Made by a program: the position numbers and the translations under genes. The notes beneath the pieces were generated by a model. The model made no database searches. It worked only from the letters and a program-made list of their open reading frames with translations, and was not told the DNA's origin. 64,000 nucleotides of DNA, from IMG/VR virus record IMGVR_UViG_2585427970_000001. One strand, written 5' to 3'. This document shows, piece by piece, positions 9,405-11,440 of this stretch. The DNA comes from a virus. Taxonomy: Duplodnaviria > Heunggongvirae > Uroviricota > Caudoviricetes. Numbering within the stretch: the stretch's first letter is position 1; each line of letters opens with the position of its first letter.

Positions 9405-9509
9405 CAGGTCCGCGTGCTTAGTTGCCAGTTCTCCAATGTTCGTTAAGCCGGTTGTGGTTGTTCTGATTGAACCGCCCCGGGTTTCCTGGAGAGTGTTTTA
9501 TCTGTGAAC

Positions 9510-10400
9510 TCAGGCTGCCAGATCATCGTTTCCGATGGAAGCATAATAAGCTTTTTCTGCTTCTGCCGGAGGAGTATGGCCCAGCCTTTCCAGCAATCGT
9601 CGATTGTTATACCAGTCCACCCACGTGAGTGTGGCCAGTTCCACTTCTGCACGGTTTTTCCAGCTCTTACGGTGTATTACCTCCGCTTTGTAAAGACCAT
9701 TGATGCTCTCCGCCATCGCGTTGTCATACGAGTCGCCTGTACTTCCTGTTGATGCCAGTAATCCGGCTTCCTTAAGCCGCTGTGTGTAGGCCAGCGATAC
9801 ATACTGAGAACCTTTATCACTGTGATGGACCGTGCCGGACGGTCGACGGGCCCATAACGCCTGCTCCAGTGCATCCAGCACGAATGTCGTTTCCATGGAC
9901 GATGAGACCCGCCACCCCACGATGTATCCGGCAAACACATCAATGATGAACGCCACATAGACGAAGCCCCGCCATGTGCTGACGTAAGTAAAATCAGCCA
10001 CCCACAGCTGGTCAGGTCGTTCTGCCACGAACTGACGGTTTACGCGGTCGCCTGCGGCAACGGCTTTCCGGCTGATGGTCGTACGGACCTTTTTACCCCG
10101 GAGAACACCGGCAAGTCCCATAACCGCCATGAGACGTGCCACAGTGCATCTGGCCACTCTGATACCTTCCCGTAACAACTGACGCCAGACTTTACGCACA
10201 CCGTATACCTTGTGATTTTCATCGTATACGCGCTGTATCTCTTTCTTCAGCCAGTCATCGCGCTGCGCACGGGCACTGCGTTTATCCGGATGATGTCGCT
10301 GTTGCTGACAGTGGTAATACGTTGACGGGGCAATATGTAGTTCACTGCATACCGGTCCGACCCCGTACAGCTTACGCAGCTTATCCAGCAGTGGCATCAC
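9510..10400 (-). CDS. IS629-like transposase OrfB (DDE catalytic part)
   Basis: 296-aa ORF with IS3-family DDE region (WVADFTYV ... HSDKGSQY ... DNAMAES). Confidence 0.9.
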
Positions 10401-10723
10401 TTTTTCCAGAGGCGGTCGAACTCCGCCTTCGCAAAATAAGCGGAAGCCTGGCGAAGGATATCGTTACTGCGGCGCAGTTCACGATTTTCACGTTCCAGCT
10501 CTTTCAGACGCTGACGTTCAGCGGTGGTGAGCCCTCCATCACCGCCCCCGGTATCCCGCTCATGCTGGCGAACCCAGACACGCAGAGTCTCCGGCGTACA
10601 GCCAATCTTTGGAGCAATGGAACAAATTGTCGCCCATTGTGAGTCATATTCGCTCTGACTTTCCAGAACCATACGGACTGCCCGTTGACGGACTTCGGGG
10701 GAAAAACGAGTATTTTTAGTCAT
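10397..10723 (-). CDS. IS629-like transposase OrfA (HTH part)
   Basis: 108-aa [23 protein letters not shown]..., leucine-zipper-like C-terminus, overlaps orfB as in IS3-family frameshift arrangement. Confidence 0.9.
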
Positions 10724-10779
10724 CCTGTTTACCTCTTTCTCAGGAAGTTTAGTCTCCAGGATTCCCGGGGCGGTTCAAT

Positions 10780-10855
10780 GCCGGTTTAGCTCAGTTGGTA
10801 GAGCGCCTGCCTTGTAAGCAGGATGTCAGCGGTTCGAGTCCGTTAACCGGCACCA
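10780..10855 (+). tRNA. tRNA-Thr (anticodon TGT)
   Basis: Manual cloverleaf: acceptor GCCGGTT/AACCGGC, D-arm GCTC-AGTTGGTA-GAGC, anticodon loop CTTGTAA, T-arm AGCGG-TTCGAGT-CCGTT, discriminator A plus encoded CCA. Confidence 0.85.
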
Positions 10856-11440
10856 ACACAACAGGTAAGGGTATTTTGCGACGTCGGAGATCGCCGTGCT
10901 TGGCAGAGGGTTCGAATCCCTACGAAGTACCCTTACCGTTGTGATGAAGTGCAGCTCTTTGAAGCAACCAGAAGATAAGCATCTGGCTTCACAACATAAA
11001 CCGCAGGAACGACCAATAAACGGTAGTCCGTATGGAGAACACCCCGTTGAGGAAGAGGCCTGGCCGGAACCGTAACCGGCACTACAACGTTGAGAACACT
11101 GGCGTAACGGGGTCATATCCCAATCTACGAATAAATGTTGCGTTGCAGCGTGACAACCAGTGTTCTCAACATTGTGGTGAATGCACAGGCTGATGTGCCG
11201 CAACTACAGTAGCGCGCTTTGTGGGGCTTGCTACAACCCTGTGTCGGAGTTCAGCACCGACCATCACAGTTTGATTCTCTGGCATGAGCATAACGCTGAA
11301 ATAAGTCCAGTCTGGTGCGGTCTGATCACCTGCCGTTAGCTCCACGAAACGGAGCACGTAACAGGTAAGAGCATTCTCCTGTAACGGGTTCATATCCCAA
11401 TCTACAGGTCCACCAAGAATGCTCTTTCCGTTGCGGTGAA
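10856..11440. other. structured non-coding region: tRNA-like element plus two paralogous stem-loop modules
   Basis: No convincing ORF; a 10-bp acceptor-like stem (GGTAAGGGTA/TACCCTTACC) enclosing a GGTTCGAATCC T-loop motif; two copies of GTAACGGG(G/T)TCATATCCCAATCTAC (11104 and 11391) each inside a perfect inverted repeat (11089-11102/11158-11171; 11367-11379/11416-11428); each module followed by a TTG(T/C)G(A/G)TGAA(G)TGC box. Confidence 0.3.

Follow-up and report, generated by a model that had tools for sequence, protein, structure and literature searches.

An IS629-linked deletion upstream of the tRNA-Thr gene in a P1-like plasmid prophage

IS629 is an insertion sequence of the IS3 family, and we take it, following ISfinder, to belong to the IS150 group of that family. 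A class of IS629 deletion known as 'type d' was reportedly described by Kusumoto et al. (2011, Nat Commun 2:152), and Sekine et al. are said to have described adjacent deletions for IS3 in 1994. IS629 gives rise to four types of deletion that depend on its transposase and on the IS-excision enhancer IEE; in one of them a large stretch next to the element is lost and IS629 itself stays whole (PMC9330008), and the deletions range in size from a few nucleotides to more than 40 kb (PMC9943667). The models put forward invoke sloppy strand transfer or a switch of strands at microhomologies (bioRxiv 10.1101/2023.06.07.543989), and for IS3, adjacent deletions in which the IS is likewise preserved have been described (PMC8860574). 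On the side of the replicon, the closest described system is the ban operon of phage P1 (Op72-P1ban ... trnA-trnT-tciABC-trnI-ban, NC_005856), upstream of which lies the dmt operon (Op68-Pdmt-uhr-hrdC-dmt).

How does the locus considered here compare with these systems? The window that we analysed comprises 64,000 nucleotides of the IMG/VR virus record IMGVR_UViG_2585427970_000001 (Caudoviricetes) and contains two insertion sequences. Copy 1 occupies positions 9468–10777 on the minus strand and is 1310 bp in length; this 1310-nt arm is 100% complementary to positions 40439–41748, where copy 2, inverted relative to copy 1 and identical to it, lies on the plus strand, and the pair constitutes the sole long repeat within the window. 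Over its full length, copy 1 shares 99.1% identity with elements annotated as 'insertion sequence:IS3 family IS629' in Stx phages. The open reading frame list contains two overlapping frames on the minus strand of copy 1, namely orfA (10397–10723, 108 aa), which NCBIfam assigns to the N-terminal part of an IS3 family transposase, and orfB (9510–10400, 296 aa), which encodes the DDE catalytic part. Both are matched by the NCBIfam model NF033516 (IS3 family transposase), with a score of 311.6 bits for orfB. The orfA/orfB overlap carries the ALIL pseudoknot of programmed −1 frameshifting (Rfam RF01497; 10326–10442, minus strand; 116.2 bits, E 8.6e-31). Direct reading of the terminal TG...CA inverted repeats places IRR at the 9468 end and IRL, which adjoins orfA, at the 10777 end. 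Taken together, the full-length match, the transposase domains and the pseudoknot indicate that copy 1 is a complete IS629.

A simple insertion of IS629 typically generates a target duplication of 3–4 bp. The initial annotation of this region, whose span of 9405–10860 took in the IS, its flanks and the tRNA gene, had reported that copy 2 is flanked by such a duplication and that the flanks of copy 1 differ, and both readings proved correct: TAC is present at 40436–40438 and again at 41749–41751, whereas copy 1 is bordered by GAT (9465–9467) on one side and by ATG (10778–10780) on the other. No direct repeat that could have been misread is present at copy 1. As an empty-site control, we removed copy 2 together with one TAC, which yielded an uninterrupted pacB gene that matches eight P1-like phage records and shows 100% identity with phage vB_EcoM-673R5 over a stretch of 300 nt. 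Because this excision restores an intact pacB, copy 2 represents a simple insertion with a true 3-bp duplication. We noted that a 428-aa open reading frame (41564–42850, plus strand) begins inside copy 2, runs past the IS end without a change of frame and continues into the 3′ portion of pacB; if translated, it could yield an N-terminally truncated PacB. With regard to copy 1, an IS629 without a duplication is commonplace, since matching duplications have been found at only 21 of 47 IS629 sites in four O157 genomes and the other 26 lack them (PMC3271280); its membership of IS629 is therefore not excluded by its flanks.

No relative has the two flanks of copy 1 next to each other, which accounts for the lack of a target duplication. 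On the left, colinearity with P1 (NC_005856) extends to position 64581, and the right flank resumes at P1 position 69422. In the nearest IS-free relative, the IncY P1-like plasmid NZ_CP074369, which shares 98.4% identity with the window over positions 1–25000, the breakpoints fall at locus positions 9528 and 14370, and the window lacks about 4,841 bp (4,840–4,843 bp across P1 and NZ_CP074369). The flanks of copy 1 have the same orientation and order as in P1 and NZ_CP074369, and the gap falls exactly at the IS termini. The exact ancestral interval is presumed from these comparisons, the closest IS-free relative being only about 98% identical. The proposal of the initial annotation that copy 1 marks the scar of a deletion is thus borne out, in that the gap in the P1-type DNA, approximately 4.84 kb, coincides exactly with the position of the IS.

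The content of the missing DNA can be read directly from the P1 annotation. The genes uhr, hrdC and dmt and the tRNA-Asn gene, which had initially been listed as absent by reference to the P1 map, all fall within the lost interval in the alignments to P1 and NZ_CP074369. Beyond that list, the loss extends to upfC, to the 5′ end of upfB (its first 246 nt), to Op68/Pdmt and Op72/P1ban/P2ban, which include both C1 operators, and to a dicF-like region. Relative to P1, the upstream dmt operon is consequently missing in its entirety. P1 presumably uses the Dmt methylase for methylation of the pac site. None of the missing interval was found elsewhere within the 64-kb window.

The two junctions can be described at the level of single nucleotides. 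At the left junction, the homology to upfB ends with the triplet GAT (9465–9467); relatives continue as GAT|CGTTGAAAC, whereas the window passes into the IS. At the right junction, the dinucleotide AT (10778–10779, plus strand) precedes the tRNA-Thr gene. Because P1 and NZ_CP074369 both read ...CATCGCCA|AT|GCCGGTTTAGC, we deduced that this AT is the native 2-nt spacer between tRNA-Asn and tRNA-Thr and is not derived from the IS. ARAGORN places the 5′ end of the tRNA at 10780, so that, as originally described, exactly 2 nt separate it from the IS end at 10777. The final CA of tRNA-Asn coincides with the terminal CA of the IS, which creates a 2-nt ambiguity in the breakpoint. This overlap fits more than one mechanism, and chance (1 in 16) would also account for it; in a reading that we regard as improbable, an endpoint at the 3′ CA of tRNA-Asn could reflect the use of a CA-terminated surrogate end by the IS629 transposase. 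We also considered, and rejected, the reading of the AT/AT that touches both IS ends as a short duplication, as these are native bases, one in upfB and the other in the Asn–Thr spacer, that lie 4.84 kb apart in relatives. The tRNA gene upstream of tRNA-Thr varies among P1-like elements, being Asn alone, Asn plus Tyr, or an annotated tRNA-Arg (MH160767 is among these elements), and the match resumes at the identical point, 2 nt before the AT spacer, in every relative listed.

Might no deletion have occurred at all? The lineage might never have possessed the uhr-hrdC-dmt-tRNA-Asn block, or an inversion might have taken place between the inverted IS629 copies; such a reading can draw on nothing beyond the bare absence of the genes, and we give it almost no credence. 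The upfB gene is cut in the middle, which is not an ancestral state, and all 89 plasmid records with a coverage of 80% or more of window positions 1–25000 span approximately 5 kb more at the site of copy 1. Among the matches listed, a Dam-family methylase, RdgC or both are named under the match in 25 of 25 records. The inversion can be rejected on two grounds: it would strip both copies of their duplications and flip a 29.6-kb segment, but copy 2 keeps TAC/TAC, and both flanks of copy 1 are oriented and colinear as in relatives. We also searched for an IS-free relative in which upfB directly adjoins tRNA-Thr, which would speak against a deletion, with a probe in which 200 nt of each flank of copy 1 were joined, counting the records that contain at least one half, and found none among 914 E. 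coli records or among 908 plasmid records, the two collections overlapping.

We found the IS/tRNA-Thr junction in none of the 5,426 complete E. coli genomes, nor in PLSDB plasmids, INPHARED phages, GTDB species representatives or JGI metagenome contigs. Both junctions of copy 1, together with the right junction of copy 2, were observed directly only in three IMG/VR contigs of the isolate genome 2636416110, in which the copy 1 junctions lie in separate draft contigs, each running 248 nt into the IS. These contigs (_000001, _000002 and _000003, of 30,158, 36,298 and 23,736 nt, respectively) appear to tile the element. Where we compared contig 1 with the window, the two were 100% identical, and by its length this contig fits window positions ~10530–40686; the end of contig 3, projected from its length, lies about 1.2 kb beyond the end of the window, which hints at a further repeat there. 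Genome 2636416110 most likely represents the same strain in draft form, and among the collections searched the deletion appears to be private to one lineage. The 162 nt of the right flank that span tRNA-Thr (10776–10937) are 100% identical to many P1-like plasmids.

Contigs assembled from short reads break at the IS629 repeat, and those of 2636416110 do so 248 nt inside the IS copies. It might accordingly be supposed that the true structure is IS629, 4.84 kb of DNA and a further IS629, and that the assembly collapsed the two copies and dropped the interval. We regard such an artefact as very improbable. A dmt 34-mer conserved in P1, Ro157c2YLVW and NZ_CP074369 matched 73 P1-like viral contigs, none of which comes from 2636416110, although a short dmt-bearing contig of this genome may simply be missing from IMG/VR. 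The inner junctions that a collapsed structure would possess are absent from the IMG/VR viral contigs, and the contigs of 2636416110 total approximately 90 kb, which is near the estimate for a P1-like replicon minus ~4.8 kb plus two IS.

By what route, then, was this DNA lost? We consider that copy 1 probably represents the product of a one-step adjacent deletion of approximately 4.84 kb by IS629 in a P1-like (IncY) plasmid prophage. A single IS629 would first have entered one of two sites, upfB or the tRNA-Asn/tRNA-Thr spacer. An aberrant transposase-dependent event, possibly aided by IEE, which is a strong stimulator in EHEC-type hosts, would then have linked one end of the IS to a distant point of that DNA molecule, and the intervening DNA would have been lost with the IS remaining intact, which is the published 'type d' outcome. 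We infer both the one-step mechanism and any involvement of IEE. The locus bears several resemblances to the 'type d' class. First, the element is again IS629, and the deletion starts exactly at an IS terminus. Second, the IS is complete and carries no duplication. Third, a loss of 4.8 kb is within the reported range. Unlike the events in the 'type d' experiments, this one is natural and took place on a P1-like plasmid prophage, and it may have depended on transposase or IEE. The experimental plasmid system for IS3 (PMC8860574) offers a second parallel, in that a copy-out-paste-in element of the IS3 family produces adjacent deletions of variable length, some of which leave the IS entirely untouched; the endpoints share a few bp at most in that system and 2 nt here.

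RecA-dependent recombination between two direct copies of IS629, one in upfB (flanked by GAT) and the other in the Asn/Thr spacer (flanked by ATG), could also have deleted the 4.84 kb; the IS that remained would then be a hybrid, with each flank contributed by a different parental copy. This route would yield exactly the structure observed; moreover, the second IS629 on the replicon indicates that multiple insertions on the plasmid do occur, and IS629 is multicopy in its usual hosts (PMC9943667; PMC3271280). However, this route requires three independent IS629 insertions in a replicon of approximately 90 kb, two of them separated by only 4.8 kb and pointing the same way. Neither of the parental inner junctions, IS|GATCGTTGAAAC and CGCCAATG|IS, was found among the IMG/VR viral contigs with spacers of 0–6 nt or among the 5,426 complete E. 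coli genomes with 260-nt probes, which is absence of evidence only. As no parental form with a single IS or with a double IS was found, both mechanisms fit the observed product. Because an adjacent deletion requires one insertion fewer and is a documented behaviour of IS629, we favour it over recombination between IS copies, which we consider possible but less likely.

The deletion has left a truncated gene on the left side of copy 1. The upfB remnant consists of the 3′ 600 nt (199 codons plus the stop; 8868–9467, minus strand), its homology ending at P1 64581. The upfB gene of P1 extends over 63982–64827 on the minus strand, and its native start and first 82 codons are gone in the window. The remnant is in frame with orfB of the IS; two stops intervene, and the first start is only a TTG at 9404. 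In this element upfB is a pseudogene.

On the right side, the genes themselves are preserved. The tRNA-Thr(UGU) gene (10780–10855, plus strand) is intact according to ARAGORN and Rfam (tRNA, 74.9 bits). Downstream in the same operon, ARAGORN and Rfam both identify a tRNA gene with anticodon CAU (12298–12373, plus strand), whose P1 homologue is trnI (tRNA-Ile2), and the open reading frame list contains an intact ban gene (12648–14018, plus strand), which encodes a DnaB-like helicase. In comparison with the P1 ban operon, tRNA-Thr, tciA, trnI and ban are kept in order and orientation, and the kept genes are 97–98% identical except for tciA, whereas the operator/promoter, the dicF-like region and tRNA-Asn have been lost. 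The view that the tRNA cluster has lost its native promoter is substantiated by the P1 annotation, in which P1ban/P2ban and Op72 (P1 68651–68696) lie inside the lost interval, and ban has lost its C1-controlled promoter together with the tRNAs. Consequently, tRNA-Thr, tciA, trnI and ban are left without a recognisable promoter directly upstream.

The initial annotation had further suggested that the cluster would now depend on an outward-reading promoter in the IS end, and for this we found no support in the sequence. In the IS3 family, the known outward −35 element is located in IRR, and IRL carries an inward −10 element (PMC9330008). The outward IRR promoter reactivates downstream genes in the IS3 system (PMC8860574), whereas in the present case the downstream genes adjoin IRL, at which no outward promoter is known or was detected. 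A consensus scan for plus-strand sigma-70 sites matching at least 9 of 12 positions returned none inside the IS. The best outward sigma-70-like candidate, TTGACG-17-GAGTAT (10685–10713, plus strand), falls below that consensus threshold and obtained a position weight matrix score of 8.75, which is at chance level, the median of the best scores in 300 shuffles being 8.81; the genuine P1ban scores only 8.04 on the same crude scale. Because tRNA-Thr adjoins IRL, the consensus scan was empty and the best matrix site is at chance level, dependence on an outward promoter is unsupported; a weak start at 10685–10713 is conceivable. Read-through into tRNA-Thr from the left is unlikely, because there is no plus-strand gene to the left of the IS: parA, repA, upfA, mlp, ppfA and upfB all lie on the minus strand. 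The tRNA-Thr gene is most likely silent or barely expressed, and ban may also have been silenced. We noted a sequence, CTGACA-16-CATTAT (12206–12233, plus strand), that is the only plus-strand sigma-70-like site in positions 9300–12700 and lies approximately 65 nt upstream of trnI; from this candidate site, trnI and ban could still be transcribed without the lost Pban.

Several further features were observed in the sequence around tRNA-Thr and tciA. Just downstream of tRNA-Thr, positions 10864–10937 (plus strand) form a very stable predicted hairpin with a 15-bp stem (−33 kcal/mol, z −4.05), in which a motif resembling a tRNA T-arm (GGTTCGAATCCC) is accompanied by an acceptor-like stem. No tRNA was called there by ARAGORN or by Rfam (E ≤ 1). 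Window positions 10776–11552 are 97.9% identical to P1, in which the hairpin is antisense to the annotated plp open reading frame, and it may represent what is left of a tRNA gene, or else an element for processing or termination. Within the IS, the sequence CATCCTGTTTAC (10721–10732), which is antisense to the ribosome-binding site and start codon of orfA, can pair with the anticodon arm of tRNA-Thr (10814–10825), 90 nt downstream, by 11 Watson–Crick pairs and one G-U pair, and this pairing is the dominant feature when the fold of a hypothetical IS-tRNA precursor is predicted. The complementarity is probably a coincidence, with about 0.02 such matches expected by chance according to a rough post hoc estimate. 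A weak Rfam match to the sRNA STnc100 (11432–11551, plus strand; 30.6 bits against a gathering threshold of 47, E 4e-4) sits between upl and tciA. The adjacent tciA region (11553–12053) gave no megablast match to P1, its sides being 96–98% identical to P1, and it does match NZ_CP074369. This stretch represents a mosaic replacement of the TerB-like tciA allele.

What might the deletion mean for the element? Instead of a neutral accident, one could imagine it as a step in domestication towards a plain plasmid, with tRNA-Thr, trnI and ban transcribed from an antisense start internal to the IS, for which the site at 10685–10713 would be the candidate. If this were true, a single event would have removed Op68, Op72, Dmt and the early ban promoter and, with the knock-out of pacB, would lock the element into plasmid life; we regard this scenario as decidedly improbable. 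The pacB gene encodes the terminase large subunit, and a prophage in which it is interrupted by IS629 should be unable to package its DNA. Because pacB is also interrupted, the element is a defective plasmid prophage, and ordinary IS activity is the cause of its decay. Such an element should pay little for doing without dmt, tRNA-Asn and a regulated ban. IS-linked deletion of this kind is well known, and the locus provides one further natural example, confined to one strain, with little significance beyond correct annotation. In that respect, the deletion explains why the plasmid lacks dmt, hrdC, uhr, upfC and tRNA-Asn and carries upfB as a pseudogene, and the junction that it created could serve as a strain-specific marker.
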